A stretch of DNA of 64,000 nt from Parcubacteria group bacterium (GTDB lineage Bacteria; Patescibacteriota; Minisyncoccia; Phycocordibacterales; UBA2135), in the NCBI GenBank assembly GCA_016180525.1, contig JACPBB010000002.1:122517-186516 (forward strand), in the 5' to 3' direction. A program made the position numbers and the translations under genes. Below the pieces are notes generated by a model that was not told the DNA's origin, made no database searches, and saw nothing but the letters and a program-made list of their open reading frames with translations. Each line of letters opens with the position of its first letter. Position 1 is the stretch's first letter. This document shows positions 18,202 through 34,948 of this stretch, piece after piece.

Positions 18202-19671
18202 TTATTCCACGTGATATCGTTTTCTGATTTCCGCAAGCTCTTTCTCTTCTTCCGCTTCGCGCTTCTTTTTTCCCGCCTCACCAAGTTTTTGCAACTCTTT
18301 GTCTTTGAGTTTCGCAAACTCAAGTGCTTTTTCTTCCAAATATTTTTTAGTATTTCGTTTGGGCTCATCAAGCACCTCTTCCAAAAGCGCGTGCAAAATC
18401 CAGCCAATGCGAGGCCCCGGTTTTTCCCCTGTGAGTTTCATAATCTCTCCTCCATCAATTTTTAACATACCAACAGTAACCGGCGCGCGCGCTGCCTCTT
18501 CAATCATTGATTCGTATTTTCGCAGGCGATACGGCTTTTCTTTTGGCCGTCCCATGCCGATTCTATCGCACGCCCGTACCTTCATTAAATCCCAGACATT
18601 GTCGGGGCCGACGTTTTTCACAAGCCGGCGTACCGCAGAGAGAGTAATTTTTTCAATATCACTAAAAAATAAGTGCCACCTAACAAGTTTCCCCACCGTG
18701 TCAATCATTTCATTTCCATATTTAAGTCGAGAAAGAGTGGCGCGGGCCACTTTTCCGCCGACAACATCATGGCCATAGAACGTCCAATCCTTTTTTTCGT
18801 CTGACCATCGGCGTGTTTCAGGTTTTGAGACATCATGAAAAAGCGCGGAGAGACGCACGTGGAGTGGCCATTCTCTGTCTGCAGAGTGTTGCACCGCACG
18901 CAAGTTGTGCTCCCACACGTCATATATATGGTCACCATTTTGCTCTATCCCAATGCCGACTTCTAACTCTGGAGTTATATACTTTAAAATTTCATGTTGA
19001 TGCAACAGTAAAATGCCACGCATAGGACTTTTTGACATCACAATTTTTGAAAATTCTTCCCGTATGCGTTCAATTGCTATGTGTTTGAGATTCCCTGCGT
19101 GTTTTTTTATTGCATCGCTTGTCTCTGTCTCAATTGCAAAGTCTAATTCTGTCGCAAGCCGCACCGCGCGCATGAGCCGAAGCGCGTCTTCGGCAAATCG
19201 CAGGTCTGCGGCTCCGACTGCGCGAATGACTTTATCTTTCAAATCCTGTTCTCCCTTAAAAAAGTCAAAAATGTCGTGCTTCACGGGGTCGTACGCGATT
19301 GCGTTTATGGTAAAATCCCTTCGCTTCAAATCATCTGCAAGTTTTTTACTGAATGTTACTTTATCGGGGCGCCGTTTGTCCGAATATTTTTCCTCAATGC
19401 GGTATGGGGTTACCTCAACAACCTTGAGTGATTTGTCTTTTGTGTCTTCATTAACAACACCAACAGTGCCATACTCATTTTCATAAAATGTGTTTTTAAA
19501 CAGTTTTTGTATTTCCTCAGGCGTTGCGTCTGTGGTGATGTCCCAGTCTTTTGGAGTTTTTTCTAAAAATAAATCACGGGTACATCCGCCCACAAGATAC
19601 GCCTCAAACCCCGCTTTTTGCAGAGTCTCGGCAATGCCGAGTACTTCTTTTGGAATCTTAAATTTTTGCAT
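18202..19671 (-). CDS. cca: CCA-adding tRNA nucleotidyltransferase with HD domain
   Basis: The N-terminal pol-beta nucleotidyltransferase motif GFEAYLVGGCTRDLFL...DWDITTDA is followed by a poly(A) polymerase head domain and an HD domain (LFHDVSKP). Confidence 0.85.
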   Translation of the reverse strand: MQKFKIPKEVLGIAETLQKAGFEAYLVGGCTRDLFLEKTPKDWDITTDATPEEIQKLFKNTFYENEYGTVGVVNEDTKDKSLKVVEVTPYRIEEKYSDKRRPDKVTFSKKLADDLKRRDFTINAIAYDPVKHDIFDFFKGEQDLKDKVIRAVGAADLRFAEDALRLMRAVRLATELDFAIETETSDAIKKHAGNLKHIAIERIREEFSKIVMSKSPMRGILLLHQHEILKYITPELEVGIGIEQNGDHIYDVWEHNLRAVQHSADREWPLHVRLSALFHDVSKPETRRWSDEKKDWTFYGHDVVGGKVARATLSRLKYGNEMIDTVGKLVRWHLFFSDIEKITLSAVRRLVKNVGPDNVWDLMKVRACDRIGMGRPKEKPYRLRKYESMIEEAARAPVTVGMLKIDGGEIMKLTGEKPGPRIGWILHALLEEVLDEPKRNTKKYLEEKALEFAKLKDKELQKLGEAGKKKREAEEEKELAEIRKRYHVE

Positions 19672-19686: not shown

Positions 19687-19760
19687 TATGCACCCGGCAG
19701 GACTCGAACCTGCAATACGACGTCCGAAGCGTCGCGTGATATCCGTTTCACTACGGGTGC
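19687..19760 (-). tRNA. tRNA-Arg (anticodon UCG)
   Basis: The reverse complement folds as a cloverleaf: acceptor GCACCCG/CGGGTGC, anticodon loop CTTCGGA, T-loop TTCGAGT. Confidence 0.8.
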
Positions 19761-19958
19761 CTATATGTGTAAGAATACCCTACAATTATTTATAAATAAA
19801 GAAAGCGGGTCTTCGTCATGAAGACCCGCGAGTTTGTGTCGATGCTTCTCGCGCCGGCGGTACTTTTTCTTATCGCGTACGACGCGGGGCCTGAACTCCC
19901 GCGTGCGCACGGCTCGTGCGACCGGATTTCTCCGGGGCAGCCTCTTTCGCTTGCGCAT
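19761..19958 (-). CDS. small very basic protein (65 aa) with strong SD
   Basis: AAGAGGAGGT lies 7 nt upstream of ATG 19958. The product MRKRKRLPRRNPVARAVRTREFRPRVVRDKKKYRRREKHRHK... is very basic. The reading frame runs through a perfect 10-bp terminator-like hairpin (19803-19827) and stops at the tRNA-Arg gene edge. Confidence 0.4.
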   Translation of the reverse strand: MRKRKRLPRRNPVARAVRTREFRPRVVRDKKKYRRREKHRHKLAGLHDEDPLSLFINNCRVFLHI

Positions 19959-20096
19959 GGGGTGACCTCCTCTTGTTTCAAATACTAAGAATATATCTAA
20001 ACACGAAACTCATGTCCAGATATGTTCTTACTACAGTAACTTTTTAACTACGAAGATTCGTCCGGATTTTAATGCCCTCATTTTTTTAGGTCGTTT

Positions 20097-20828
20097 TTAT
20101 ATCTCCCTCGTGGCATTTTTACGGGGATATTCTAACTTTAACAGTTGGCTGACTTTGCTTCTTAAGTCTGCGGTTTGTGTTAATGAGTTCAGCAAATTGT
20201 GTATAATTCTTGGTGTTGGTATGGAGTAGTTATCATCTGGCAGTGATTCAATTTCTTTAATTAAATCAAGAATCGTACCCCTGATGTAATCTGGAGACCC
20301 CCATATTCCGACCCCCTCAGTGGCCTGAAATGGTTCGACGTGGCGAAGCCCGTTAAATAGCTCTTTTAATGACGTTGACCCATCTATTAATTTTTTAAAT
20401 TCTACAAAATTTCCTCTGTTTACATCTAATTTTTCACCTCCATTTTTTTGCCTCCCACCAGACTTGCTTACTTTATCGGCGGACATCACTTCGTATACCG
20501 AGGTCCTAGTTTCGACAATTAACTTGCCGTCTTCAACGCGCATAGCGCGCACATCGCTGGTGTGACCCATTGGTCCAAAATAAAGAGGTTCTCCAATTCG
20601 TATTTCTTGCATTAAAACGCCATCTATTGTCTCGCCTACCTCAACCTCAGAGTTTTGCCCCGCGCGCAATGAGCGTTTTTTTAAAATTACTTGCTCACCT
20701 ACTTGCGGCGCGCGAGGAGACTCTCTTTCTGCGCCCTTATCAACATCCTCCCACGCCTTATTTATCGCCTCTCCCTCGTCTGGAGGCATTTTTTTCGGTT
20801 GTTCAAATTTTAATTTTTCTTGGCTCAT
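20097..20828 (-). CDS. hypothetical protein (243 aa)
   Basis: A long ORF. No motif recognised. Confidence 0.5.
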   Translation of the reverse strand: MSQEKLKFEQPKKMPPDEGEAINKAWEDVDKGAERESPRAPQVGEQVILKKRSLRAGQNSEVEVGETIDGVLMQEIRIGEPLYFGPMGHTSDVRAMRVEDGKLIVETRTSVYEVMSADKVSKSGGRQKNGGEKLDVNRGNFVEFKKLIDGSTSLKELFNGLRHVEPFQATEGVGIWGSPDYIRGTILDLIKEIESLPDDNYSIPTPRIIHNLLNSLTQTADLRSKVSQLLKLEYPRKNATREI

Positions 20829-20899
20829 GGTTTTATAGTACTTTATAATTTTCTAACTCGCAAACGATACACTCTAACATTCTAAAGGATGTTAGAGTG

Positions 20900-21112
20900 T
20901 TACAACATATCAGAAATTGAAACTGTTTTTTTCTTTAAATTAATTAGTTTGTCCAAATATTTACTGATATGTAGACATTCAACGCCGCAGATGCCATTCC
21001 AATCTCTTTTCAGCCGCATGGTATTTTTATATTCTAGAAGTAAACGAACACCATCCGGCCCGTCCGCCAGTTGTTCTAATTTTTTAATCTCAATTTCTGC
21101 TTTTTGAGTCAT
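20900..21112 (-). CDS. small hypothetical protein (70 aa)
   Basis: ORF only. Confidence 0.35.
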   Translation of the reverse strand: MTQKAEIEIKKLEQLADGPDGVRLLLEYKNTMRLKRDWNGICGVECLHISKYLDKLINLKKKTVSISDML

Positions 21113-21404
21113 AATTTTTATTTAATTTTTGTTTAGATTAAATTACGAAGAGCATCGTGCCCGTCTCTGTTATTAATATGTTTATAGTTGTTGAGGCGGG
21201 CACAATGCTCCCCGCAATTCCGCATAAAGCGGAGTCGGAAGAGCGCGTTCTATGCTGATGTATAAAAGAGCCGTATCTGTTGACGATGAAATGCGTTTGA
21301 AAAATTTTGCGCTGTTTGTATGTGAAGGCCATCCCCTTCCGGGGCGCATCATTTTGATTAAATGCCTTGTCATACCGAGCGTAAAAAATTTTTTCAAACA
21401 GCAC

Positions 21405-21694
21405 CTCTCTCCAAGCCCTCTATTACACCAATGTCTAAAGCATGATAGAGAGCTCGGAAAGGGGGGCGACGACTACTTATTGCTTTTTATGTCGTCGCCC
21501 GAGCGCAAGTCAGCCAACATGGCTTGTGGGAGCTGGCGCAAACCAGCGGCGCCTCGCGCTGCGATAGTTATTTATTGAGTTATTGCTGTGGCACTTACCT
21601 CCGAAGATACACCAGAGAGGCACGTGCCACAGCAACAAACTTGTATTACTGTCAACTCTGTGTGCTATTATACTTTTTTAAATAATTTTGTCAA
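21405..21694 (-). ncRNA. candidate structured RNA/leader driven by strong promoter
   Basis: The minus-strand TTGACA-16-TATAAT promoter is at plus coords 21667-21694. The transcript is GC-rich, with a 12-bp stem (UUGCUGUGGCAC/GUGCCACAGCAA) and a GCGACGAC/GUCGUCGC stem. The downstream ORF 21138-21404 looks weak. Confidence 0.3.
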
Positions 21695-22262
21695 GTACTA
21701 ATGATATATTCTTAAATTTTCTTTCGCACACATAAAAAATATCCTTATTTTTTAATGATTTTTCAGAAACTGCTAAAAGTCAGTACTTTTTGACAAAATG
21801 GTTTTTTGAAATGTTACAGGAATGATTTTTATTTTATTTGTCAAAAATACTTGACAGAAATATTGCTATATGCTATACTCTTAATAATTCTGGCAGGAGC
21901 ATGTCTTGCCAGAAACGCAGTGGGACTTCTCCCCTGCGAAACCCTGAGGAGGGGTTTACTATGTCCTCGTCATCCGGCACACGTTTGGCAACAATAATTG
22001 GCCATAAAAAGCAGGAAAAACGAAGACAAGCTGTCCACACAAATGGATCCGCCGACTTGCGGACGGGCGGCAAAGACACGTTACGTGCGTCCCTCCTCGT
22101 AACCACAGGAGGGATGCCATGATTTTATCTGGCGGAAGCGGTTGGTAATAATCTCCCACTAAAACTTTTTAACTTTTAAAAGTTTACACGAAAATATAAG
22201 AGATAGAAAAAGAGGCCGTCGTGCTCTTGCATCGCGGCCCTTACTTTTTATTTTATTTACTT

Positions 22263-23018
22263 TTATTTTTCTCCAACCTCCCAAACAACAGCAAAAACAG
22301 ACTTCATGCTTTTTGTAATTTCATCACTTTCTATGATTACTCCGAATAACTTTTCTTTCAAAGCCATAAGGACAACTTTATTATCAAAAATAATCATATC
22401 ACTACTTAAGTTTAATTTTTCTTGAGGAAAGTACTTTCTTTCGGTAAGTTTTTGGGTAAGTTTTATATCTTCATTTGTAAATTTTCCCTCTTTATTTGTA
22501 TAAATAATTTTTGAATGTATATTATTTGCAATTCGTTTTTTTGAATACGCGTCTCTTTCTTTATCTGAAAATACGGCTGACAATGCATCGTGCGAATAAA
22601 TAATAAACCACTCTTTGTTTTTTGCCTTAAGCATTTCTTCCCGTATTGTGAGTAGCCCCTCTTTTCCTTCAAAAAATCTAACGCGCGGGCGCACGCCAGC
22701 GTGTTCAAATATTTTCTTTAAGTCTGGAAGCAGTTTCTCAAGTTCTTTTTCTTTGCGCGCTGTTTCCGTCTTTTTTGCGATAATAATTCTTTCCAGATGT
22801 TCAGGTGACTCTGCGGCAAAATATGTCTTTTTCCCTTCGTCAAATGAGCTCAAAAGCCCTTTTTGCATGAGAGACTCAATTTGTACGTATGTGGTGGGAC
22901 GTTTCACCCCCGCATGTTTTGAAATTTCCTCTGCTGTTGCCTTTCCAATTTCCAAAGACGCAAGGTATACCCGCGCCTCATTTTCTGAAAGTCCAAATTC
23001 TTGAAGTTCTTTTAGCAT
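22263..23018 (-). CDS. TrmB-like winged-helix transcriptional regulator (paralog 2)
   Basis: The N-terminal HTH FGLSENEARVYLASLEIGKATAEEISKHAGVKRPTTYVQIESLMQKGLL has the same architecture as paralogs 1 and 3. Confidence 0.7.
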   Translation of the reverse strand: MLKELQEFGLSENEARVYLASLEIGKATAEEISKHAGVKRPTTYVQIESLMQKGLLSSFDEGKKTYFAAESPEHLERIIIAKKTETARKEKELEKLLPDLKKIFEHAGVRPRVRFFEGKEGLLTIREEMLKAKNKEWFIIYSHDALSAVFSDKERDAYSKKRIANNIHSKIIYTNKEGKFTNEDIKLTQKLTERKYFPQEKLNLSSDMIIFDNKVVLMALKEKLFGVIIESDEITKSMKSVFAVVWEVGEK

Positions 23019-23129
23019 AGTAATAATTATACTCTAAAAATCTGTATGAAAATATCTAAAAAGAGCTCCGCGTGAAGCGCGGAGCAAGTTGCCAACAAAA
23101 TGGAGTTTAAAAAATAAAGATAAAGAGCT

Positions 23130-23568
23130 AGAGAGAGTTGGGGGGTTTGGGTTCCAAGGTACCCCCCGAACCTCGTTGCCGTGTCGCTTTAAGCGCCGTG
23201 AGGCACTGTTAGGCGGCAGCGGCTAGCCCGAATCCCTGCTCCGGTGCCATCGCGGCGAAGAAATTGCCGTGACGTACATCAGTAGGGATCCGGACCGTTC
23301 CGTTATCGTTGACATTTTGGTCAGTTAGATCTCTTTTACTCTGCCCGAAGGCAGGGTGTGCTCGCTTTTGTCACGCGCGTCGATCCTATTTCGCCCCCCT
23401 CAGGAATGCATACAGGTGGGACTTGAACCACACTTCAGCCGTTTTGGGCTTACCGGAGCGTGAAGCTCCCGCATTTCCCCTTTCGGGCTGTATGCATTCT
23501 TGGTGGAGGCGCCGGGTACTGCCCCCGGGTCTGCGACGTCTATTCTGCAGGCACGAGCTCAACCAACC
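23130..23568 (-). ncRNA. ssrA: tmRNA (ssrA), circularly permuted two-piece gene arrangement
   Basis: On the minus strand an extended -10 TGATATAAT promoter (plus 23576-23584) is followed by an acceptor piece ending ...CCGGGGGCAGUACCCGG CGCCUCC A CCA (CCA at plus 23501-23503). Next comes an intervening element closed by a perfect 12-bp stem GAAUGCAUACAG/CUGUAUGCAUUC (plus 23402-23500) that contains a T-arm-like GUGGUUCAAGUCCCAC. The coding piece starts GGGGGCGAAAUAGGAUCGACG (plus 23399 downward). 5' GGGGGCG pairs with 3' CGCCUCC, giving a G3:U70 wobble. GGAUCGACG matches the conserved tmRNA GGAUUCGACGGG. An in-frame tag ORF GCA CCG GAG CAG GGA UUC GGG CUA GCC GCU GCC GCC UAA encodes (A)PEQGFGLAAAA (plus 23209-23247). 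The 3' end of the coding piece (GGCAACGAG) pairs with the 5' end of the acceptor piece (CUCGUGCC). Confidence 0.7.
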
Positions 23569-23693
23569 GCTATCTATTATATCAGATTTTATTTAAAATG
23601 CAAGCGTTTAAACCTAAATTTAAGCGGCTTATTGAAGAAAAAGAAAAAGCATAGTAGAATTCCTATATTCAATCTTCTTGTTTCCGTAGTTTT

Positions 23694-23727
23694 GCGGGCC
23701 TGCCCGCCGAAGCCTGCGGAAGCAGGC
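23694..23727 (+). other. two GC-rich hairpins immediately 5' of tRNA-Gly(GCC)
   Basis: GCGGGCctGCCCGC lies at 23694-23707 and GCCTGC-GGAA-GCAGGC at 23712-23727. They are preceded by a GCGGG copy of the tRNA 5' end. Confidence 0.5.
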
Positions 23728-23731
23728 GAAG

Positions 23732-23802
23732 GCGGGTATGGTTCAATGGTAGAACATCTGGTTGCCAATCAGATGATGGGAGTTCGATTCTCCCTACCCG
23801 CA
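23732..23802 (+). tRNA. tRNA-Gly (anticodon GCC)
   Basis: Acceptor GCGGGTA/TACCCGC, anticodon loop TTGCCAA, T-loop TTCGATT. Confidence 0.85.
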
Positions 23803-23803
23803 T

Positions 23804-24100
23804 ATGGAAAAACTTCCTAAAAACCCCACTGGTGCAGAAATACAAGAATTCGTCTCTAAACAAGAAGCAGAGTTAAAAGAAAACCTGAATTCACTTGTTG
23901 AACTTTTTAATTTAAAAGTTTTAAGAGAGGGGCACGATTTTTCTAGCCCAATATTAGTTGTTGAAGCGGCTGATGGGGGTGAGGCAAAAATAGGATTTCC
24001 AGATGGCCTTAAATATCCTCCCTGTGCAACTAAAAAAATAAAAGATGTTCCAATGTCAGTGTATGGCCATGGTCCTTGGGCATACCACATAGATATTTAA
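23804..24100 (+). CDS. small hypothetical protein (98 aa)
   Basis: The ORF starts 2 nt after the tRNA. No motif recognised. Confidence 0.4.
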   Translation: MEKLPKNPTGAEIQEFVSKQEAELKENLNSLVELFNLKVLREGHDFSSPILVVEAADGGEAKIGFPDGLKYPPCATKKIKDVPMSVYGHGPWAYHIDI

Positions 24101-24375
24101 ACAAATTTTTATAGTTTTACTGAAAAATAAGGATAGATTGTCAGAAAACTGTGCATAACTATGTGGATATGTGTATAAAGGACAAAAAATGTCCTTTATA
24201 TTTTATAAGAATAGGCTTGTCGCTGCGTAATCTCAAACTTTCGCAAGGTAAGGGTTGGAAATACAGCTAAGCATTATTCTTATAAAAGTTTCACATGAAA
24301 CATTTACAAAGAATAACTATTATTTTTTAAAAGTTTTGCTTATTATTTGGAATTACTTCACACAATTAATGTTTC

Positions 24376-24801
24376 ATGAATAACGCAAAAAATCATAAAA
24401 AACCTGAACATTTAAAAATAGGAGCTTTAGGAGAAGATATTACCTGCCGCTTTTTAAAACAAAAAGGATTCAAAATAATTGAAAGAAATTATAGAAAGAA
24501 ATGGGGGGAGATAGATGTTGTTGCAGAAAAAGAAAATATTTTACGTTTTGTTGAAGTAAAATCTGTTTCACGAATAACGTCAGATGAAAATGTTATTCAT
24601 GAAACATCTGAAAGGAGATATCGTCCAGAAGACATGGTGCACCCATGGAAAGTAAAAAGGATGCAAAGAGTAATTCAGTCATATCTTTTTGAAAAAAATA
24701 TTTCAGAATATATAAAATGGCAGTTTGATATAGTTGCTGTTGAGATTGATCAAAATAGAAAAACCGCAAAAGTGCGTTTTATTGAAAATATGATATTGTA
24801 A
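24376..24801 (+). CDS. yraN: UPF0102/YraN-family putative endonuclease
   Basis: LGEDITCRFLKQKGFKIIERNYRKKWGEIDVVAEKENILRFVEVKS is typical of the YraN family. Confidence 0.7.
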   Translation: MNNAKNHKKPEHLKIGALGEDITCRFLKQKGFKIIERNYRKKWGEIDVVAEKENILRFVEVKSVSRITSDENVIHETSERRYRPEDMVHPWKVKRMQRVIQSYLFEKNISEYIKWQFDIVAVEIDQNRKTAKVRFIENMIL

Positions 24802-24809
24802 TAAAAAGA

Positions 24810-24852
24810 TTGTTTCATGAATAACACTTTAAAAATGTTATTCATGAAACAA
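24810..24852. repeat. perfect 17-bp inverted repeat (TTGTTTCATGAATAACA-9nt-TGTTATTCATGAAACAA)
   Basis: The left arm repeats the 15-mer TGTTTCATGAATAAC that overlaps the yraN start codon (24370-24384). Confidence 0.6.
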
Positions 24853-24984
24853 TGAGCGGAAATGCTCAATAAATATATTTTAAAAGACAAAACAACGTGT
24901 CTTTTTGCTTGTCTTTTACGGGCTGTAGCCCCGACGCAAAGTCGGGGTCCCGACCTCGGGGCGCGTCGGGATATATAAAATAAG

Positions 24985-25055
24985 CGGGCTGTAGTATATC
25001 GGCAGTACACATGCATGGGGTGCATGTAGGCCGGGTTCGATTCCCGGCAGCCCGA
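24985..25055 (+). tRNA. tRNA-Pro (anticodon GGG)
   Basis: Acceptor CGGGCTG/CAGCCCG, anticodon loop ATGGGGT, T-loop TTCGATT. It is preceded at 24919-24928 by a duplicate of its first 10 nt plus two GC hairpins (24929-24971). Confidence 0.8.
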
Positions 25056-25168
25056 CTGAGTGAAGCGAAGGAGGGATGATTGCAGTTGAGGAGCGGAAGC
25101 GACGAAATACTGAGGTCAATAGACCGAATGTGCCCGAACGGAAATAAAAAAAACATGTGCATTAAAAA

Positions 25169-25239
25169 CGGGCTGTAGTATACCGGTAGTACGCACGCTT
25201 CGGGAGCGTGTAGATCGGGTTCGATTCCCGACAGCCCGA
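25169..25239 (+). tRNA. tRNA-Pro (anticodon CGG)
   Basis: Acceptor CGGGCTG/CAGCCCG, anticodon loop TTCGGGA, T-loop TTCGATT. Confidence 0.85.
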
Positions 25240-25241
25240 TT

Positions 25242-25478
25242 ATGGAAAATGATAAAAATTTGAAAATTGAGGTGAGGGATAAAATGATAACGTATCTGAC
25301 TGCGGCATTTGGACTTGTGGTGGGTTTGGCGTGGAATGATGCGGTAAAAGCGTTTATTGAGTTTGTATTTCCTATTCAAAAAGATTCGCTGTGGGCGAAG
25401 TTTGGATACGCATTTGTTCTCACTGTTGTTTTTGTTTTGATTACCATATATATTGCTCGTTTGTTTAAAAAACAGTAG
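25242..25478 (+). CDS. small membrane protein (78 aa, 2 TM)
   Basis: Hydrophobic segments ITYLTAAFGLVVGLAW and FGYAFVLTVVFVLITIYIA. Confidence 0.5.
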   Translation: MENDKNLKIEVRDKMITYLTAAFGLVVGLAWNDAVKAFIEFVFPIQKDSLWAKFGYAFVLTVVFVLITIYIARLFKKQ

Positions 25479-25493
25479 TATTGAAAGACAGAA

Positions 25494-26012
25494 ATGATAT
25501 TAACGAAAAGCAAAATTTTAGAAGAGATTAAAAAAGGCTCAGTGAAAATTGAGCCATTTTCTGAAGAACAAGTGACTGCTGCCTCTATAGATTTGCATTT
25601 AGGCAATGTGTTTAAGGTACTGGTTAAAGCAGGCCACTCTATTATTGTAGATAATGAACTTACTGACGCAGAACAATATGCAAAACCAATTCATCTCAAA
25701 GAAGAAGAGACAATAACGATACAGCCTAATGAAACGATTCTCGGCGTTACAAAAGAAAAGGTAACGTTTCCGTCTGACATCGCGGGGAGAATAGAAGGAA
25801 GGTCGCGGTTCGCGCGCATCGGGCTTGGGGTGCACATTACTTCCGGCTTTATTCATCCGGGCGCGGACAACATACAAGTGCTTGAAATTTCAAACATGTC
25901 GCCGAATGAACTGGTGTTAAAACCAGGGCTTAAAATTTGCCAGATTGTGCTTGAGCGCTGCGAAGGGGGAGAGACATACGCGGGAAAATTTCAAGGACAG
26001 ACCGAACCGTAA
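25494..26012 (+). CDS. dcd: dCTP deaminase (dUTPase-fold)
   Basis: MILTKSKILEEIKKGSVKIEPFSEEQVTAASIDLHLG...GRIEGRSRFARIGLGVHITSGFIHPGA is characteristic of the Dcd family. Confidence 0.85.
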   Translation: MILTKSKILEEIKKGSVKIEPFSEEQVTAASIDLHLGNVFKVLVKAGHSIIVDNELTDAEQYAKPIHLKEEETITIQPNETILGVTKEKVTFPSDIAGRIEGRSRFARIGLGVHITSGFIHPGADNIQVLEISNMSPNELVLKPGLKICQIVLERCEGGETYAGKFQGQTEP

Positions 26013-26050
26013 GCTAGCTATTAGGAGTTAGTTTAATTTCAATATAATCA

Positions 26051-26124
26051 TGGGCGGCTAGCTCAGCTGGTTAGAGCGCTGTCCTCACACGACAGAGGTC
26101 ACAAGTTCGAATCTTGTGCCGCCC
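26051..26124 (+). tRNA. tRNA-Val (anticodon CAC)
   Basis: Acceptor GGGCGGC/GCCGCCC, anticodon loop CTCACAC, T-loop TTCGAAT. Confidence 0.85.
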
Positions 26125-26129
26125 ATTTA

Positions 26130-26200
26130 GGGGCCTATAGTAAAGTGGTATTACGCGGCATTCGCATTGCCGAGTCCGGGGTTCGACTCCCCGTAGGTCC
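26130..26200 (+). tRNA. tRNA-Ala (anticodon CGC)
   Basis: The acceptor GGGCCTA/TAGGTCC has a G3:U70 pair. Anticodon loop TTCGCAT, T-loop TTCGACT. It is followed by CCC. Confidence 0.8.
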
Positions 26201-26210
26201 ACCCAAAAAA

Positions 26211-26236
26211 ACATCCCGACAGCTGTCGGGATGTTT
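26211..26236. terminator. bidirectional terminator (A7-CATCCCGACAGCTGTCGGGATG-T6)
   Basis: A perfect palindrome flanked by an A-run and a T-run, lying between the tRNA operon and the convergent regulator gene. Confidence 0.7.
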
Positions 26237-26267
26237 TTTGTTTCGCAATAGTTTTTCTGAATAAATT

Positions 26268-27050
26268 TTATTTATAATCTTTACCTAATCCGCTATTCCA
26301 AATCATTTCAAAAATTTGCTCCATAGATTTAGCAACGCGTTTATTGTCAATAATAATTGCTTGTAAATCCTTGCTAGAAATAATTCGTACAAATTCTCCT
26401 GGAATGATTTCTGTTGAAGTATCCGGGGACCATAAATCTATATTAATTAATTTTGTATGTCCTTTATATATTTCTTCTTGCGGTTTAATAAAAATATCGC
26501 TTTCTTTTGTATCTGGCGCGATAACACGATGTCGCACGTCGCTTTTACGAGCTTTTTTATTCCACTCAAGATAAATATTAATAATTTTCTGGTCTGGGTC
26601 GGGCAGGTGCGAATACAACGCAAGAATAGTTTTACCATTCATGCTCTCAAATTTATAGTGCAGAGCATTAACTATGCCATCATAACCGTCAAATGTTATG
26701 ACTGTTGACTCATCTTTCTGAACTGCAAGTTGCGCGATAGTAGGCAACATTTCCTCAAAGGAAAGTATTTTGTTTTTTTGCTCCTCTACATACTCCTCCG
26801 GAGTTTTCGCGAAAAAAATCTGGCTCTTTGAGTGAGGAATCTTGAGCACCAGTCCTTTTTGTCTTAATTCTTCCAACACAAGGTAGGTTGTCGGAGTTTT
26901 TACGCCCGCAAGTTTGGAAATTTTGTACGCGGTTCCGCGTCCAGTTTGCAAAAGTGCAACATACACTTTTGCCTCTTTTTCTGATAATCCTATGTCGCTT
27001 AATTTTCTTGTTAAGTTTTCCATAATGTATATAGTACCAAAAATATACAA
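26268..27050 (-). CDS. TrmB-like winged-helix transcriptional regulator (paralog 3)
   Basis: The N-terminal HTH IGLSEKEAKVYVALLQTGRGTAYKISKLAGVKTPTTYLVLEELRQKGLV. Confidence 0.7.
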   Translation of the reverse strand: MYIFGTIYIMENLTRKLSDIGLSEKEAKVYVALLQTGRGTAYKISKLAGVKTPTTYLVLEELRQKGLVLKIPHSKSQIFFAKTPEEYVEEQKNKILSFEEMLPTIAQLAVQKDESTVITFDGYDGIVNALHYKFESMNGKTILALYSHLPDPDQKIINIYLEWNKKARKSDVRHRVIAPDTKESDIFIKPQEEIYKGHTKLINIDLWSPDTSTEIIPGEFVRIISSKDLQAIIIDNKRVAKSMEQIFEMIWNSGLGKDYK

Positions 27051-27234
27051 ATGTTCAATAATTCTGATGAATATTTACTAATTAAAAAATAGCCTTGTTT
27101 ATCAATATAAAAATAGAATATACGTGTTAAAATATTCATATTAATTGATTAATTTTAAAAACTATGGTATAGTTTTATTAGAAGATCGTTGAAGCGTCCA
27201 TGTCGTAGCAACACCTTAGAAATGGAGATTAATT

Positions 27235-27501
27235 ATGATTAACGGAATGAAAAAGTTATTCGGACTTTTGTGGCTCCGCGTCCCACCCGCAGATCGTTCA
27301 ATGCTTCCGCTTACTGCAATATTCTTTTACTTCGTGTGGCTCGCCCTCTCTCCCTTGACGATAATGGTGTTCGCTGCTATCGGGTGGATGCCGCTTGTTC
27401 TAAGCGTTGGCATTCTTGGATTCATGTTTCTGTTGGGAATTCCCTTTTCGGTAGTGGCGACCGGCATTTGCTGGTATCGCATGTGCAAAAATTACTACTG
27501 A
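27235..27501 (+). CDS. small membrane protein (88 aa, 2-3 TM)
   Basis: Hydrophobic ORF with a downstream terminator hairpin at about 27520-27555. Confidence 0.5.
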   Translation: MINGMKKLFGLLWLRVPPADRSMLPLTAIFFYFVWLALSPLTIMVFAAIGWMPLVLSVGILGFMFLLGIPFSVVATGICWYRMCKNYY

Positions 27502-27725
27502 AAAGAGTCTATTAAATTGAGCCTTTGTCTGCTGAGACAGGGGCTTTTTTTCTTAATTTACAAAATTTTTTTAAAGCATTCTGGACATTCCAAAGAGTTG
27601 ATATATTTGAAATTGCCGAAGATATAATATACAGAGATACAAGAGATGATATAGACGTATAATTTTTCTTAGACAAGTGATGGTTTTTTGTTAGTATCAA
27701 ACTAGACTGTGCTTAAGGGTGCTAC

Positions 27726-28688
27726 ATGAGCTCAATATTTTACCCTGTCGTCCCGCTTTCGTGTCCGTGGGGTGCCTCGGGGTCGTGTAGATTTTGCGGC
27801 ATTCCGTTTATGGAAAAAGTGCTTGTGCCGGAGATGCCGGCTGAAAAAGAACTTAAAGCCCAATTTGATGTATTTGTAAATAACTCTAGAAACGCACAAG
27901 ACATTAAAAGACACAAACGAATCGCAATTGCGCCCAACGGAAGCGTCGTCCCTGAAGTTCCCAAACCACTTCGGGATTATGTGCTCGCATTTTGCAAAAA
28001 GCACAACCTTTGCTTTGAAAGCGAACTCATAGCAACGCTCATTGACGAGAAGCGTGCGTACGCGCTCTATGACAGGGCATACAAGAAGCGACACCGCGGA
28101 CTCTCTGGTTCGGAAAGGCACGGAAAAGTTGTCGCAACTCTTCAAGAAATTGACGACGCGCTCAACAGTGAATTTCTCGGAAATAACGTGCTTTTAAATA
28201 TCGGCGTAGAGGTCGCCAATTCAGAAGATTTGAAAATGCTTCATAAATATACCGATGACCCCGATGATTTCATTGCGTGCGCGGAGTATCTGCGCGCGCG
28301 AGGCATCAGGATTGGCGCGAATATTCTCGTGGGGGCGCCGTTTATACAAGACCCTGTGCGCAAAGCGCTTGAAACAGTGCGTTTTGCGTTTGAAGAGGTG
28401 CGAGCTGACAAAATACTCCTTATTACATGGAACCCGGTGAAGTACACTGTCGCGAAAAAGCAGTATGACAAGGGAAATATTGACGTGCTCTCGGCAACGG
28501 AATCCGCTGAAATATATCATGTCGTGAAGGCGGCATATCCGCATAAAGAAATTGAATGCAACAGAATGCGCGCGCACGTGTTTCATGGAAAACATCCGAA
28601 TTTTAGAGGCGCCAGGATTAGCACCGACGAGCGGAAGATAAGGGCACGAGAAGCGGTAAGGGCGTTAGCAAGAGAGGTTTTTGTATAA
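27726..28688 (+). CDS. hypothetical protein with noncanonical Cys triad (CX8CX2C); possible radical-SAM-like/TIM-barrel enzyme
   Basis: The N-terminal CPWGASGSCRFCG is followed by alternating beta/alpha-like segments. It is not the canonical CX3CX2C. It is followed by the terminator at 28688-28722. Confidence 0.5.
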   Translation: MSSIFYPVVPLSCPWGASGSCRFCGIPFMEKVLVPEMPAEKELKAQFDVFVNNSRNAQDIKRHKRIAIAPNGSVVPEVPKPLRDYVLAFCKKHNLCFESELIATLIDEKRAYALYDRAYKKRHRGLSGSERHGKVVATLQEIDDALNSEFLGNNVLLNIGVEVANSEDLKMLHKYTDDPDDFIACAEYLRARGIRIGANILVGAPFIQDPVRKALETVRFAFEEVRADKILLITWNPVKYTVAKKQYDKGNIDVLSATESAEIYHVVKAAYPHKEIECNRMRAHVFHGKHPNFRGARISTDERKIRAREAVRALAREVFV

Positions 28689-28769
28689 AGCCCCGACTAC
28701 AAGTCGGGGCTTTACTTTTTATGTTTATAAGAGTAATCTGTGGGGCAGACATAACGAAGAAAAAGGAAT

Positions 28770-29954
28770 TTGATAATGCCGAAACAGTCACCGTACCCCT
28801 TTGGAGGAATAAATCCGCCGCACCATGGAAGCGTTGCATTCGTTTATAAATCTGTTGAAGATGGCAGAGGAGCGTTTAGTAAATATGGAAGCAGATACGC
28901 ATACGGGCGAATGGGAAATCCAAGCGTTCAGCCGCTTGAAGAATGGCTTGCGGAGTTTCATGGTCTTCCCGCAGGCTCTGTGTGGGCAACTAATACCGGG
29001 ATGACTGCTCTTGACCTCGTAATTCGGGGGAGCACATTAAAGGATGTCGGGTGGGGCAAAAAAATTGTTGCTTCCCCGTATCTATACGGCGGAACATTTC
29101 ACCTTTTGGAGCTTCTTGACCGAAATGGATATATCAACCTCGTATGGGTTGAAAATCCATTTGATTTGAGTTCGTGGGAAATTGCCTTAAACGGAAAGAC
29201 CGCGGCGATTGCTATTCTTGAGACACCGGCAAATCCGACAATTGACATTTTTGACATACGGGCAATTGCGACCACGGTACATACCTGGGGATCTCGTCTT
29301 GTGGTTGACGACACGCTCGCTGTTGGCCTTCAAAAGCCATTTGAACTCGGAGCAGATTGCTGTGTCTACTCTGTCACAAAGGGTTTGAATAGAAAATCTT
29401 CGCATCTTGGCGGCGCGGTTGTTGCGAACCCATCGTTTAGAAGCAAGGTAGAGGCGGTTTTTGATGATTTATTTGTGCACTCGGGAATGATTATAGATCC
29501 TGGCTCTGCAATCGCTGTATATCAAAATAGGGCAACCCTCGTGCGGGATATGGAGCTTTTTTCAGAACACGCGCTCATTGTTGCCTTGTTTCTGCAGAAG
29601 CATAAAAAAATCAAGAAGGTCAACTACCCGTTTCTTAAGAACAGCAAACATTACCATTTGGCGCATCAGCAAATGACCGGCGGCGGTGGCGTGCTTTCAT
29701 TTGAGATGCACAGCTTTGATGACGCCGTTAAGTTTGTTGAGCTGCAAAGCGAGGCGTACCTCGGAGTTCATTTAGGTGATGGGAACAACCATCTGGTGAC
29801 TCATCCAGCATCCACCACGCACAGCAAACTCTCTGAAGAAGAATTGAATAAACTGAATATTACGCCGGGACTTATCAGGCTCTCGGTTGGCCTTGATGAA
29901 AAGAAAATGAGTCCGCTTCTTGCTAATTTTAAAAACGTTTTGGATCAGTTGTAA
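28770..29954 (+). CDS. PLP-dependent Cys/Met-metabolism enzyme (cystathionine gamma-synthase/O-acetylhomoserine sulfhydrylase/methionine gamma-lyase family)
   Basis: The family-typical N-terminal region is present, and the PLP-lysine context is YSVTKGLNRKSSHLGGAVV. Confidence 0.75.
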   Translation: MIMPKQSPYPFGGINPPHHGSVAFVYKSVEDGRGAFSKYGSRYAYGRMGNPSVQPLEEWLAEFHGLPAGSVWATNTGMTALDLVIRGSTLKDVGWGKKIVASPYLYGGTFHLLELLDRNGYINLVWVENPFDLSSWEIALNGKTAAIAILETPANPTIDIFDIRAIATTVHTWGSRLVVDDTLAVGLQKPFELGADCCVYSVTKGLNRKSSHLGGAVVANPSFRSKVEAVFDDLFVHSGMIIDPGSAIAVYQNRATLVRDMELFSEHALIVALFLQKHKKIKKVNYPFLKNSKHYHLAHQQMTGGGGVLSFEMHSFDDAVKFVELQSEAYLGVHLGDGNNHLVTHPASTTHSKLSEEELNKLNITPGLIRLSVGLDEKKMSPLLANFKNVLDQL

Positions 29955-29971
29955 AAAACAAAATTATAACT

Positions 29972-29998
29972 CCGGAAAATATCCGGGGTTTTTATTTT
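29972..29998 (+). terminator. intrinsic terminator (CCGG-aaaatat-CCGG GGTTTTTATTTT)
   Basis: A short stem followed by a T-run after the stop at 29954. Confidence 0.45.
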
Positions 29999-30028
29999 GA
30001 TTGTTTTTGTGTATATTCAATAGTGACT

Positions 30029-30052
30029 ACGGGGCGTAGTATACCCCAGTAC
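30029..30052 (+). pseudogene. orphan 5' fragment of a tRNA-Pro-like gene (acceptor + D-arm)
   Basis: CGGGGCG-TA-GTATACCCCAGTAC-C. The matching 3' half lies at 30216-30253. Confidence 0.5.
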
Positions 30053-30121
30053 CATCCCGCCTGTGGCGGGAGCTACGGGGCAGGCCGGTAGCCGCCTGCT
30101 TCTTGTCCCGTTAGAAAATCA

Positions 30122-30192
30122 ACGGAGTGTAGTATACCGGTAGTACACCTGCTTTGGGAGCAGGCAGACTGGGTTCGATTCCCAGCACTCCG
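30122..30192 (+). tRNA. tRNA-Pro (anticodon UGG)
   Basis: Acceptor CGGAGTG/CACTCCG, anticodon loop TTTGGGA, T-loop TTCGATT. It lies between the two halves of another tRNA-Pro-like sequence. Confidence 0.85.
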
Positions 30193-30215
30193 ACAATCAA
30201 ATTTTCTAATGGGAT

Positions 30216-30253
30216 AGGGAGCAGGTAGACTGGGTTCGATTCCCAGCGCCCCG
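30216..30253 (+). pseudogene. orphan 3' fragment of a tRNA-Pro-like gene (anticodon-loop 3' part, T-arm, acceptor 3' strand)
   Basis: GGGA-GCAGG-TAGAC-TGGGTTCGATTCCCA-GCGCCCCG-A. The acceptor strand is complementary to the 5' fragment at 30029-30035. Confidence 0.5.
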
Positions 30254-30340
30254 ACAATTAAATTTTCTATTTGTAAATTTGCACAATTTCAAGATGTGCG
30301 GTAGTTTGTTTTTAGATTATTTTTTAAGGCAACTCACAAC

Positions 30341-30880
30341 ATGGCGAGGAAAAAATTTTCTGTTCAGCCACCTGTTCCCAAAAAGTTTAAACCGCCTGTT
30401 GTTGAAAAGAAAAGTGACGGAGTGCCGGCATTTCATGCGTATGACTGGTATTTTAATTGGATGAAAGGATTTATGAAAAATGTGGACGGTGTATTTCTTG
30501 TACCCTGCGCGGCGACAAAACCGATTTACACCTCAACATTTCATCGTCGTATTTATCAGCCGTTTGGAGCGACTCGTGGCAAAGGCAGAGAAATTTTGGT
30601 TGTTTCAGAACCGGTTGTGCTCATCCGCTATCAGGATTTGTATGACTTTGAAAAAATGTTTTTGTACGAGTTTCATCCCAAGATGCTCTCGGAGAGTAGA
30701 GAATTGTTTGTGAATCGTTTGCGGGAACTGCTTTCAGGAAAACATATTGTCGGATGTTTACCAAGCCACCATGCAAAACTCATTGATGATGCAGTGGGTG
30801 GAGGTTGGAAAAATTATTGGGATGGCAACATGTATTCTATGGTGGAAAAAGGTACAAAACTTGCTCGAAAAAGGACATAA
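30341..30880 (+). CDS. hypothetical protein (179 aa)
   Basis: An ORF with a basic N-terminus. No motif recognised. Confidence 0.5.
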   Translation: MARKKFSVQPPVPKKFKPPVVEKKSDGVPAFHAYDWYFNWMKGFMKNVDGVFLVPCAATKPIYTSTFHRRIYQPFGATRGKGREILVVSEPVVLIRYQDLYDFEKMFLYEFHPKMLSESRELFVNRLRELLSGKHIVGCLPSHHAKLIDDAVGGGWKNYWDGNMYSMVEKGTKLARKRT

Positions 30881-30917
30881 AATTTAAAAACACCGCGACA
30901 TGTTTACATGCCGCGGT

Positions 30918-31193
30918 TTAGTTTAGGCTTCGTTTGTGCTGCTTCACAAAATTTGGTAATTCTCTTGCAACCCAAGCGTTCATGGTCTCAAACAGCAGGA
31001 GACCTTCCGCGTTAAGGACATTCTGTTCGGGAAGTACCGGGCGTCCTGCGTTATTGCGCATGATATTTTCGCTCAGAATTTCGTGTAGCCGCTCAAATTC
31101 CGTCACTTTATTTTCATCTTGTTCCTGAAGATTGCCGAGAGCGACGACAGAGTGGCAGTACTGAATAGCGTCTTGAGCTGTAATAGTGAACAT
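30918..31193 (-). CDS. small hypothetical protein (91 aa)
   Basis: AAGGAGGTG lies 6 nt upstream of ATG at 31193, so that start is preferred over the track start at 31202. Confidence 0.45.
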   Translation of the reverse strand: MFTITAQDAIQYCHSVVALGNLQEQDENKVTEFERLHEILSENIMRNNAGRPVLPEQNVLNAEGLLLFETMNAWVARELPNFVKQHKRSLN

Positions 31194-31285
31194 AAGAACC
31201 ACCTCCTTTTCAGATGTAATTGTATCATATTTAATAAAAAAGTCAAATATTTTTTGTGCTCCAAAAAATACTATAATTACAAATA

Positions 31286-32083
31286 ATGAAAATTATCTCG
31301 TGGAACGTAAATGGAATTAGGGCAGTGCACCGCAAGGGCCTGTTTCTGCCGTTTATAAAAAAAGAGCAGCCGGACATATTGTGTCTTCAGGAAACAAAAG
31401 CAGAAAAGCATCAGTCGGAAATTGATTTGCCGGAGTATGAAGAATACTGGAATTCTGCGGAAAAAAAAGGATACAGCGGCACGGCAATTTTTACAAAAAC
31501 AAAACCGCTCTCCGTTGCGCTTGGCATTCCGGAGCCCATTTCAAAAAAATGGAAGCTTGGGGGAGACGGGTATGGGAATCCAAACACAGAGGGGCGTGTC
31601 ATAACTGCCGAATTTAAAAATTTCTTTTTAATAAGCGTCTATACACCCAATGCAAAAGATGATTTGAGCCGCCTTTCGCTTCGTCACAAACATTGGGACC
31701 CTGCATTTTTGGAGTTTTGCAAAATTCTGGACCAGAAAAAGCCTGTTATTTTTTGCGGAGACTTGAATGTGGCGCATATGCCGATTGACTTGGCGCATCC
31801 AAAAGAAAACGAGGGCAAAAAGGGCTTTACAAAAGAAGAGCGAGAGGGAATTAATAATATTATTGTGGCTGATTTTGTAGATACGTTTCGGTGCTTTAAT
31901 GACAAGCCGAATCAATACACATGGTGGAGTCATTTTGCGAACTCGCGGGCGCGGAATGTCGGCTGGAGGATAGATTATGTTTTTGCGAGCAAACGTTTAC
32001 TTTCAAAAATCACTTCGGCATTTATCAGACCAAAAATTTTTGGCTCTGACCATTGTCCGGTTGGGATTGTTCTTGATATTTAA
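31286..32083 (+). CDS. xth: exodeoxyribonuclease III (Xth/APE1 family AP endonuclease)
   Basis: MKIISWNVNGIRAVHRK...ILCLQETK...GDLNVAH...WWSHF...GSDHCPV. Confidence 0.9.
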   Translation: MKIISWNVNGIRAVHRKGLFLPFIKKEQPDILCLQETKAEKHQSEIDLPEYEEYWNSAEKKGYSGTAIFTKTKPLSVALGIPEPISKKWKLGGDGYGNPNTEGRVITAEFKNFFLISVYTPNAKDDLSRLSLRHKHWDPAFLEFCKILDQKKPVIFCGDLNVAHMPIDLAHPKENEGKKGFTKEEREGINNIIVADFVDTFRCFNDKPNQYTWWSHFANSRARNVGWRIDYVFASKRLLSKITSAFIRPKIFGSDHCPVGIVLDI

Positions 32084-32085
32084 AG

Positions 32086-32928
32086 ATGCTTTCCGCGAAA
32101 AAGGTTTTACAATTTCAAAAAATAATTTATGCGCATTATAAAAAACACGGGCGGAAACTCCCGTGGCGTCCTCCTGCGCTAAAGCTTCGGAAGGATAAAA
32201 TTTTAAATCCTTATAAAATTCTTGTTTCTGAAGTGATGCTTCAACAGACACAAGTTTCTCGCGTGATTAAAAAATATCCATTGTTTATAAAAGAGTTTAA
32301 GACGGGGCGCGCGCTTGCGCGCGCGCCGCTCTCTAAAGTTCTTTCAGTCTGGAGCGGGCTTGGATATAACCGCCGGGCAAAGTTCTTACATCACGCTGCA
32401 AAAAAAATTATTGAAAAACATGCTGGAGTCCTGCCAAGGGATGCTGAAACTCTTATGACATTGCCTGGGGTGGGGCCGGGAACTGCAGGGGCGGTAATGG
32501 CCTTTGCCTTTAATACGCCAAGTATTTTCATTGAAACAAATATACGTAGCGTATTTATTCATTATTTTTTTCCTAAAAGAAAAAAGGTGTCAGATAAAGA
32601 AATTTTACAGCTAATAAAGAAAACAATTGATAACAGAAACGTGCGCGACTGGTATTACGCGCTTATGGACTATGGGGTAATGCTTAAAGAAAAGCATAAA
32701 AATCCAAGTCGTAAAAGTGCTCATTATGTGGAACAATCTCCGTTTAAAAATTCCAACCGGCAAGTCCGCGGAGAAATTCTCAAACTTTTGACACAGCACA
32801 AATCAATTCCGAAACAAAAAATAAAAAAATATATAAAAGGTAATCAAAAATATATTAACAGCGCGCTTGAACAGCTTTTAAAAGAAAAATTTATACGGAT
32901 AAAAAATAATGTAGTTACACTTGCATAG
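32086..32928 (+). CDS. HhH-GPD base-excision DNA glycosylase (MutY/Nth family)
   Basis: LVSEVMLQQTQVSRVIKKYPLF...LSVWSGLGYNRRAKFLHHAAKKI...LPGVGPGTAGAVMAFAF. No clear 4Cys Fe-S loop is seen. Confidence 0.7.
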   Translation: MLSAKKVLQFQKIIYAHYKKHGRKLPWRPPALKLRKDKILNPYKILVSEVMLQQTQVSRVIKKYPLFIKEFKTGRALARAPLSKVLSVWSGLGYNRRAKFLHHAAKKIIEKHAGVLPRDAETLMTLPGVGPGTAGAVMAFAFNTPSIFIETNIRSVFIHYFFPKRKKVSDKEILQLIKKTIDNRNVRDWYYALMDYGVMLKEKHKNPSRKSAHYVEQSPFKNSNRQVRGEILKLLTQHKSIPKQKIKKYIKGNQKYINSALEQLLKEKFIRIKNNVVTLA

Positions 32929-33036
32929 CATGTTGCATTTCTAAAGCTATTCCTAGATTGTGTTGATTGATTTGACGCGCGAAATACAAAGGAGTAGTAT
33001 AAAAACGGTTACTTACTTTTCCGTCTGCCTTTAACA

Positions 33037-33246: not shown

Positions 33247-33301
33247 TACATGCGTTAACGCGACCAGAACTTGAGAGCTTGTAACAAGACACAAGCTCTT
33301 T

Positions 33302-34903: not shown

Positions 34904-34948
34904 GCGGGATTAGTTTCGGGATAAAATATACAATTTTCCAACATAATT
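34904..34948 (+). pseudogene. degenerate duplicate of the 5' 40 nt of tRNA-Gly(UCC)
   Basis: GCGGGATTAGTTTcgggataaaatatacAATTTTCCAAcat compared with the tRNA GCGGGATTAGTTTaatggcaaaataacAGTTTTCCAAact. Confidence 0.5.

Follow-up and report, generated by a model that had tools for sequence, protein, structure and literature searches.

How does a gene for a two-piece transfer-messenger RNA (tmRNA), an RNA form taught as a trait of three bacterial lineages and some mitochondria, come to stand on a chromosome of the candidate phyla radiation (CPR, Patescibacteria)? The question is raised by a stretch of 64,000 nucleotides (nt) from a Parcubacteria group bacterium (assembly GCA_016180525.1, contig JACPBB010000002.1, positions 122,517 to 186,516), here called the window, in which an earlier note had read a circularly permuted tmRNA gene (ssrA) from the letters of the minus strand at 23130-23568. 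This locus is confirmed as a circularly permuted two-piece tmRNA gene of the alphaproteobacterial type, and its features lie far beyond chance. In an Rfam cmscan of the whole window, its minus strand matches the alpha_tmRNA model (RF01849) with 89.9 bits (E 4.7e-23; 23607-23136, model positions 1-355) and the tmRNA_permuted model (RF04321) with 75.9 bits (E 9e-13; 23558-23209, model positions 1-213), exceeding gathering thresholds of 50 and 47 bits, respectively. The one-piece model RF00023 has no match within the window. ARAGORN calls eight tRNAs in the window and no tmRNA, so that of the search routes named in the earlier note the covariance models find the gene and ARAGORN misses it; two homologues described below, L005 and L006, are called as permuted tmRNA by the same program. 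Very probably, then, this is an ssrA gene of the alphaproteobacterial permuted type on a Parcubacteria chromosome, whose transcript is processed to two RNAs, and which was horizontally acquired and then vertically inherited.

The host is a member of the Parcubacteria (CPR), not of the Alphaproteobacteria. A TrmB-family protein of 251 amino acids, encoded 118 nt downstream of the tmRNA gene (23018-22263), is 100% identical to HYT93_02530 from a metagenome-assembled genome (MAG) labelled 'Parcubacteria group bacterium'. The earlier note had thought the gene notable if the genome were CPR-like, as it proves to be. The tmRNA gene lies in the middle of the window, within a 412-kb contig (412,640 bp) and with CPR-type genes on both sides; the GC content is ~42% in the window and ~40% in the tmRNA flanks.

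On the minus strand, a promoter-like site is followed by the acceptor piece with its CCA (23503-23501), an intervening sequence (IVS), and the coding piece, which starts with GGGGGCG (23398-23392) and contains the tag frame (23313-23209). This permuted order, all on one strand, can be read directly from the sequence, as can the position of the CCA-ended acceptor/T-arm segment upstream of the GGGG segment on which the earlier note was built. According to the Rfam alignments and RNAcofold, the acceptor piece (23501-23570, ~66-70 nt) comprises the 3' strands of helix P2, the T-arm, CGCCUCC, the discriminator A, and an encoded CCA. Its sequence, ...GGCGCCTCCACCA, finishes at 23501, and so does the T-arm/acceptor stretch of 31 nt, GACCCGGGGGCAGTACCCGGCGCCTCCACCA, which recurs in other alpha-type genes; the 5' end is placed tentatively from the position of the promoter. 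The T-arm CCGGG-GGCAGUA-CCCGG (23528-23512) is free of mismatches against the Rfam model, and its loop is of the alpha type GGCNGUA; a standard T-loop is of the UUCGAAU type. The 3' strand CGCCUCC (23511-23505) precedes the discriminator A at 23504 and the CCA, and RNAcofold pairs 23398-23392 with 23505-23511, the third pair being G:U. The acceptor stem GGGGGCG/CGCCUCC with G3:U70, as proposed in the earlier note, is thus a 7-bp helix in the cofold as well. G3:U70 is the alanine identity pair. Together with the closing stem of the IVS, the acceptor stem was reported by an inverted-repeat search as a single 24-nt inverted repeat.

The coding piece (23136-23398, 263 nt when counted to where the Rfam match ends) contains, by Rfam alignment and cofolding, GGGGGCG, the segment GAAAUAGGAUCGACG, the 5' strands of P2, a UUCG hairpin, the tag frame, and a 3'-terminal hairpin (23167-23140). 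It opens in a run of six G (23399-23394) followed by CGAAATAGGATCGACG, the extra G at 23399 preceding GGGGGCG, and the conserved motif reported for the GGGG segment is present as GGATCGACG at 23386-23378. Folding places the UUCG hairpin at ~23357-23340, upstream of the tag. PK1 and PK2 pseudoknots flanking the tag are typical of two-piece forms (PMC3985003). In the window, the PK-region hairpin of the tmRNA_permuted model contains four non-standard pairs and is unmatched, and a pseudoknot-free fold predicts the UUCG hairpin upstream of the tag. The primary transcript of the coding piece may extend to an intrinsic-terminator-like hairpin found by a terminator scan (23058-23085, minus strand; GCUCCGCG-CUUCA-CGCGGAGC, then UCUUUUU), which separates the tmRNA gene from the TrmB start codon at 23018; in L006, the corresponding position is occupied by two terminator-like hairpins. 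At the other end, a putative promoter was read from the sequence at 23576-23603, with a -35 element TTGCAT (23603-23598), a 16-nt spacer, and an extended -10 element TGATATAAT (23584-23576). A promoter scanner did not flag this site because the -35 element matches in only 3/6 positions. In L005 and L006, TGATATAAT and a TTGAC/TTGCA -35 element recur at equal distance (alignment A1). A separate TATAAT ends ~9 nt before the TrmB ATG in the window (23018-23040), L005 (1050-1092), L006 (2478-2503), and L106, which indicates a leaderless or near-leaderless TrmB mRNA with its own promoter; the tmRNA is thus not merely a TrmB leader.

Comparison with related genomes, which the earlier note had put forward as a check, places the same gene beside orthologous TrmB in several CPR lineages. 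The relatives were found by following TrmB orthologues to their contigs. Beyond the window, the permuted gene adjoins TrmB in no fewer than five CPR lineages, and one more (L104) carries a remnant; in all relatives except L103 it lies directly upstream of TrmB on the same strand. Full genes are present in L005 (GCA_964412135.1; TrmB identity 64%, 119.7 bits with alpha_tmRNA), in the marine type L006, L007, L092, and L056 (59%, 146 bits; L056 being the Patescibacteria group bacterium UBA2135), and in L106 (GCA_964479245.1; 57%), where the gene was read directly from the sequence. The Logan contig L099 (80%, 114.3 bits) begins in the T-arm, and the JGI contig L103 (61%, 32 bits) has a partial gene in opposite orientation. 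In L104 (ENA ERZ1292636, Hainich groundwater; TrmB identity 61%), a remnant at 95-262 between tRNA-Gly and TrmB retains the promoter, the 3' hairpin, and ~35 nt from the acceptor piece, and is without T-arm, CCA, IVS, 5' strand, and tag; a gene lost in a single lineage or a deletion made in assembly would each explain it. The window, L006, and L104 share a divergent tRNA-Gly(GCC) gene on the upstream side, which gives the order tRNA-Gly, tmRNA, TrmB. The synteny is patchy: no tmRNA adjoins the TrmB orthologues of L004, L008, L010, L011, L100, L101, and L102.

The coding pieces of the CPR copies share 55-73% mutual identity. Among them, the window and L106 represent a subtype with a long tag, a CUGAG-GGGGGCG junction, six G, and an altered loop in the 3' hairpin. 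ARAGORN misses L106 as well, even though this gene has a GCC resume codon in the same 34-codon architecture; the miss therefore reflects the subtype and not decay. Pattern searches added little to the sample. In genome contigs, TGATATAAT-N(33-52)-31-mer retrieved one match, UBA2135, the pattern being too strict. TATAAT-N(36-55)-31-mer retrieved 42 metagenome contigs, all without a TrmB neighbour except L092, which is of the same type as L006, so that no CPR lineages were gained. The T-loop of L106 is GGCAGUG, and searches with the exact 31-mer therefore miss part of the clade.

The relatives also redefine the tag. From GCA CCG onward the earlier note had predicted a tag of 11 residues, whereas homology gives 34 sense codons (23209-23313, minus strand) from a resume codon GUC at 23313-23311 to UAA at 23211-23209; the shorter peptide is probably only the tail of the real tag. 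The tag peptide reads (A)VNDNGTVRIPTDVRHGNFFAAMAPEQGFGLAAAA, and its Ala-rich end, GCC GCT GCC GCC TAA (23223-23209), and the terminal AAAA were read correctly, the C-terminus being LAAAA. In the Rfam alignment, the alpha consensus GCA AAC GAC AAC faces GUC AAC GAU AAC in the window, starting at 23313 and in frame with the stop, and the relatives have GCC AAC GAY AAY. The resume codon of the window thus encodes Val and deviates from the normal Ala codon GCN. L106 also has a 34-codon tag, ANDNKRLTVSRVDANRHGKNFATAARNPGFRLAA, with RHG.NF.A and GF.LAA common to both. The tag of L005 as called by ARAGORN, ANDNGTTLGNDVHNTWRHTSGATATLAA, has 28 codons and is partly homologous to that of the window; the tags of L006 (ANDNEALALVA, also an ARAGORN call) and L099 have 11 codons. 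A hairpin in the middle of the window's frame, CCGGAUCCCU/AGGGAUUCGG, was read from the sequence, and the extra codons of L106 contain a hairpin stem, CCCGGG/CCCGGG, that differs from it in sequence. In three lineages, an NDN start and an LAA-type end stay in frame through the insertion, which argues that the whole frame is the tag. Typical tags have ~10-27 codons, and 28-34 are unusually long.

How the two pieces hold together was predicted with RNAcofold. For the window, 33 intermolecular pairs are predicted, which form the acceptor stem, the P2 helices, and a helix of 13 bp; in the Rfam alignment, P2 contains 1-2 non-standard pairs. In the minimum free energy structure, the 13-bp helix joins the 5' end of the acceptor piece (23568-23555) to 23333-23319, ending 5 nt before the resume codon, and the predicted partner in the coding piece is GAGAUCUAACUGACC (23319-23333, minus strand). 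The same three-part architecture, with other sequences, is predicted for L005, L006, and L106. The earlier note had paired the distal ends of the two pieces instead. The complementarity itself is present, CTCGTGCC (23557-23550) matching GGCAACGAG (23180-23172) with one bulged A, and a 5-bp core can be located in three lineages, where a hand-made alignment is 100% paired with three double changes; the segments were picked by hand for their pairing, and the result is down-weighted for this reason. However, the 3' register shifts by ~3 nt between lineages (MAFFT alignments A1 and A3), and pairing of CUCGUGCC with GGCAACGAG would compete for the 5' segment of the upstream-of-tag helix, which RNAcofold pairs upstream of the resume codon in four lineages. 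The distal-ends pairing is thus unproven, and the predicted upstream-of-tag helix appears better supported.

Between CCA and the coding piece lies the IVS (23399-23500, minus strand, 102 nt), which, by analogy with other permuted genes, would be absent from the mature RNA. It consists of a closing stem, four small interior hairpins in the predicted fold, and a 5-nt spacer, CUGAG, before G+1. The 12-bp stem, GAATGCATACAG (23499-23488) with CTGTATGCATTC (23415-23404), is perfect as first reported; the element that it closes measures 96 nt, not the 99 nt given before. The fold has -44.5 kcal/mol (z = -3.3). In the window, L005, L006, and L106, the stem starts 1 nt after CCA and ends 5 nt before G+1. 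A gap-free alignment of these four, anchored on CCA and GGGGGCG (and also made in a three-sequence version), has 93.8% of its cells paired and 9/12 pairs changed on both sides; none of 500 shuffles was as good (0/500), and no slid register approaches this pairing. L099 has no stem in this register. The length of the IVS ranges from 73 to ~150 nt. A similar layout characterizes alpha-type genes in general: when 40 distinct IVS with lengths of 20 nt or more (up to 264 nt) were compared from viral and metagenome contigs sharing the 31-mer, 29 have at least 7/8 paired positions in a stem that starts 0-1 nt after CCA and ends 4-5 nt before G+1. The closing stem is thus conserved and covarying, yet it is a generic precursor feature of alpha-type permuted genes. 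Presumably it holds the two acceptor strands side by side, so that RNase P and the 3'-end enzymes can reach the ends. In most sampled alpha-type genes (L013-L092), GGGGGCG is directly preceded by YUGAU at the end of the IVS; such a conserved 5' leader may bear on cleavage by RNase P. The window and L106 have CUGAG in this position.

One might go further and regard the IVS as a functional tRNA-like processing module, or the remnant of a tRNA, that recruits RNase P or RNase Z to free both ends. One permuted gene with a real tRNA-Ala inside its IVS is on record (PMC11915505), the interior of the window's IVS adopts a multi-branch fold with the low z score given above, and GUGG-UUCAAGUC-CCAC follows directly 3' of the closing stem. 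The letters of the T-arm-like motif noted earlier are indeed present (GTGGTTCAAGTCCCAC, = GUGGUUCAAGUCCCAC, 23431-23416), but the motif requires an 8-nt loop and a 4-bp stem and cannot build its stem around a canonical 7-nt T-loop. Between 23399 and 23500 ARAGORN detects no tRNA, and an Rfam search with just the IVS has no match at E <= 10. Moreover, the motif is missing from the IVS of L005, L006, L099, and L106, and pairwise local alignments with these four revealed no conservation of the interior compared with shuffles, except for a 10-mer shared by the window and L099. With nothing but the generic closing stem conserved, such a module is very unlikely. An assembly or binning artefact, in which an alphaproteobacterial gene was misjoined to, or misbinned with, CPR sequence, is more improbable still and can nearly be set aside. 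Misbinning has been raised in general for tmRNA genes that appear out of place in MAGs (PMC11915505), and the Logan contigs of this strain (L001-L003), like that of its relative L099, have their first base at ACCCGGGGGCAGTACCC... (window ~23530), inside the 31-nt stretch shared by alpha-type genes. This suggests that assembly graphs branch at a shared k-mer of co-occurring organisms. However, the gene lies well inside a long contig and is flanked on either side by CPR-type genes, so that misbinning does not apply; the arrangement of tmRNA followed by TrmB, in some cases with tRNA-Gly upstream, recurs in independent groundwater and marine assemblies, the flanks have ~40% GC, and the promoter is kept among the CPR copies.

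It is also unlikely, if less so, that the window copy is a decaying, non-functional relic whose role has passed to another rescue system or a second ssrA. Its Rfam score is the minimum of the clade (89.9 bits against 114-146), ARAGORN misses it, the resume codon is not GCN, the loop of the 3' hairpin is altered, and in L104 the locus has shrunk to a remnant. On the other hand, every element required for function is intact (T-arm, GAAAUAGGAUCGACG, P2 helices, encoded CCA, and an acceptor stem of 7 bp that includes G3:U70), the extended -10 promoter is conserved, and the frame is open over 34 codons from the conserved NDN start to LAAAA. L106, likewise overlooked by ARAGORN, has the same architecture with a GCC resume codon. 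A further alternative holds that a CPR lineage permuted its own one-piece ssrA and converged on the alpha layout. The alpha, beta, and cyanobacterial permuted genes are said to be of independent origin. Permuted ssrA genes do occur in these three separate bacterial lineages (PMC3985003, PMC11915505), but of the models the alpha one fits the CPR genes best, and these genes display characters of the alpha type: the GGCAGUA T-loop, the ANDN tag start, the 3' hairpin (ACCUGGCAACAGAA in L005, L006, and L099), and an IVS layout with the stem register and a UGAU-type spacer as in alpha-type genes. In addition, the 31-mer is identical in 44 viral (IMG/VR) and 42 metagenome contigs carrying alpha-type genes. 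These alpha-specific traits argue for horizontal acquisition, and independent permutation is accordingly rated as highly improbable.

The most economical scenario is therefore one horizontal acquisition by the ancestor of a Parcubacteria clade, followed by vertical inheritance, divergence, and occasional loss; the most likely source would be an alphaproteobacterium or a phage carrying such a gene. Several observations weigh against the overall explanation of the locus. No donor was found: in blastn comparisons of the CPR genes with 86 alpha-type loci, similarity was confined to conserved cores. The window copy is the most divergent of its clade in the respects listed above, and the remnant in L104 indicates that loss is possible within the clade. 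TrmB and the tmRNA give conflicting signals, since L099 has the closest TrmB (80%) together with an 11-codon tag and a canonical 3' hairpin, whereas L106, with a TrmB identity of only 57%, has a 34-codon tag homologous to that of the window; recombination at the locus or TrmB paralogy could account for the disagreement. Among the 30 open reading frames (ORFs) of at least 140 amino acids scanned in the window, none matched the SmpB family, and a second, standard ssrA elsewhere in the genome is possible. With these points in mind we lean, by a small margin of belief, toward a more specific version of horizontal acquisition: a Parcubacteria subclade would have swapped its one-piece ssrA for an alpha-type two-piece ssrA acquired horizontally, perhaps from a phage or from an alphaproteobacterial host of these episymbionts. 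It would then form a fourth two-piece lineage in which an inter-phylum transfer became fixed, and its tag would have grown to 28-34 codons by in-frame insertion of a hairpin, with frame and structure conserved. That the one-piece gene was replaced is itself something we infer.

Known two-piece systems provide the background for this scenario. The prototype of the alpha form is the ssrA of Caulobacter crescentus (Keiler et al., 2000, as summarized in PMC3985003). With the alphaproteobacterial tmRNA (RF01849), the window gene shares the gene order, the G3:U70 acceptor stem, the GGCNGUA T-loop, GAAAUAGGAUCGACG, P2 formed between the pieces, the ANDN start and Ala-rich end of the tag, the 3'-terminal hairpin, and the register of the IVS stem. 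It differs in its Parcubacteria host, the 34-codon tag, the Val resume codon, and the in-frame hairpin insertion; compared with the RF01849 model it is without the small 5' hairpin and part of P2, and the predicted fold has a UUCG hairpin within an extended inter-piece helix where a pseudoknot is typical. Alpha-type two-piece ssrA genes are also carried by phages across class boundaries, as in the OM43 phage Melnitz and in pelagimyophages (PMC9004378). Like the window gene, these are alpha-type permuted genes outside the Alphaproteobacteria, which indicates that the gene moves between hosts, and the 31-nt T-arm/acceptor sequence links the window to the 44 IMG/VR contigs. Unlike the phage copies, the gene in the window is chromosomal and syntenic across CPR, with no adjoining phage genes seen and no riboswitch, and it resembles the sampled phage copies in the conserved cores only. 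Among the viral contigs (L012-L055), many contain complete alpha-type permuted genes with IVS of 22 to 264 nt, including a recurrent family of ~10 contigs with a 180-nt IVS and a GC content of ~0.39; in others a coding-piece start is missing from the vicinity, and these may be fragments of attachment sites. In a collection of named phages, the only match was one of 34 nt in Rhodobacter phage RcRudolph.

With the standard one-piece tmRNA of Patescibacteria (RF00023), which is unpermuted and a single RNA, the window gene would share the presumed function. Among 6765 Patescibacteria genomes in a tmRNA database, 5252 standard, 15 permuted (alpha), and 5 permuted (beta) tmRNA genes were counted, the standard form making up 5252/5275 of the tmRNA genes found (PMC11915505, Supplementary Table 2). 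The text of that publication describes three main permuted clades and raises misbinning for cross-phylum cases. Its 15 'Permuted (alpha)' entries, given there as counts in a supplementary table of the 2025 database, probably belong to the same clade as the window gene. UBA2135 is called by ARAGORN, one of the search tools used for that database. No paper describing permuted tmRNA in CPR was found in the literature. The gene is thus of a known kind in an unexpected host, counted in a database table and undiscussed in the papers found.

If the gene works as its structure suggests, a single precursor would be transcribed from the extended -10 promoter, and the acceptor stem and the 11-12-bp IVS stem would bring the CCA-bearing 3' strand and the 5' strand together. 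RNase P might then cut at G+1 (23398) and tRNA 3'-end enzymes trim back to CCA, so that the 102-nt IVS is removed; the accepted model has RNase P and tRNase Z process permuted tmRNA (PMC3985003). Removal of the IVS has indirect support in its closing stem, which covaries and keeps a fixed register. The products would be an acceptor RNA of ~66-70 nt and a coding RNA of at least 263 nt, joined by the 7-bp acceptor stem with G3:U70, the P2 helices, and the further helix that ends 5 nt before the resume codon. Charged with alanine, the complex would rescue stalled ribosomes together with SmpB and append the 34-residue tag ending in LAAAA as a degradation signal for a protease, possibly ClpP, whose gene is in the window. 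Gene identity, architecture, host lineage, conservation among relatives, and covariation of the IVS stem are observed directly; the processing enzymes, the transcript ends, aminoacylation, function in trans-translation, and the transfer event are inferred.

Besides ClpP, the window encodes PNPase, RNase Y, NusA, NusG, a CCA-adding enzyme (18202-19671), type IV pilus proteins, and two TrmB regulators, the second TrmB-family paralogue lying at 26268-27050. The eight tRNA genes are spread over 15 kb (19689-35021) and comprise Arg-TCG, Gly-GCC, Pro-GGG, Pro-CGG, Val-CAC, Ala-CGC, Pro-TGG, and Gly-TCC. Downstream of TrmB, a region of ~1.4 kb (20830-22260) is without an ORF longer than ~108 amino acids and without an Rfam match above noise; several imperfect hairpins occur in it, formed by inverted repeats at 21300-21393, 21580-21638, and 21680-21864, and no gene is called at its counterpart in the identical Logan contig L001.

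Anchoring on a long contig and synteny across CPR lineages indicate that at least the Patescibacteria cases among permuted tmRNA genes outside the main clades are real and represent an inherited acquisition. The locus would thus offer a concrete example of the horizontal replacement of a core ribosome-rescue RNA. It raises the question of whether SmpB, alanyl-tRNA synthetase, RNase P, and the protease of a CPR bacterium work with a foreign two-piece tmRNA, or whether smpB was transferred along with it. ARAGORN misses the long-tag subtype, and genomes that carry it may therefore be annotated as lacking tmRNA. The tags of 28-34 codons are possible targets in metaproteomes.

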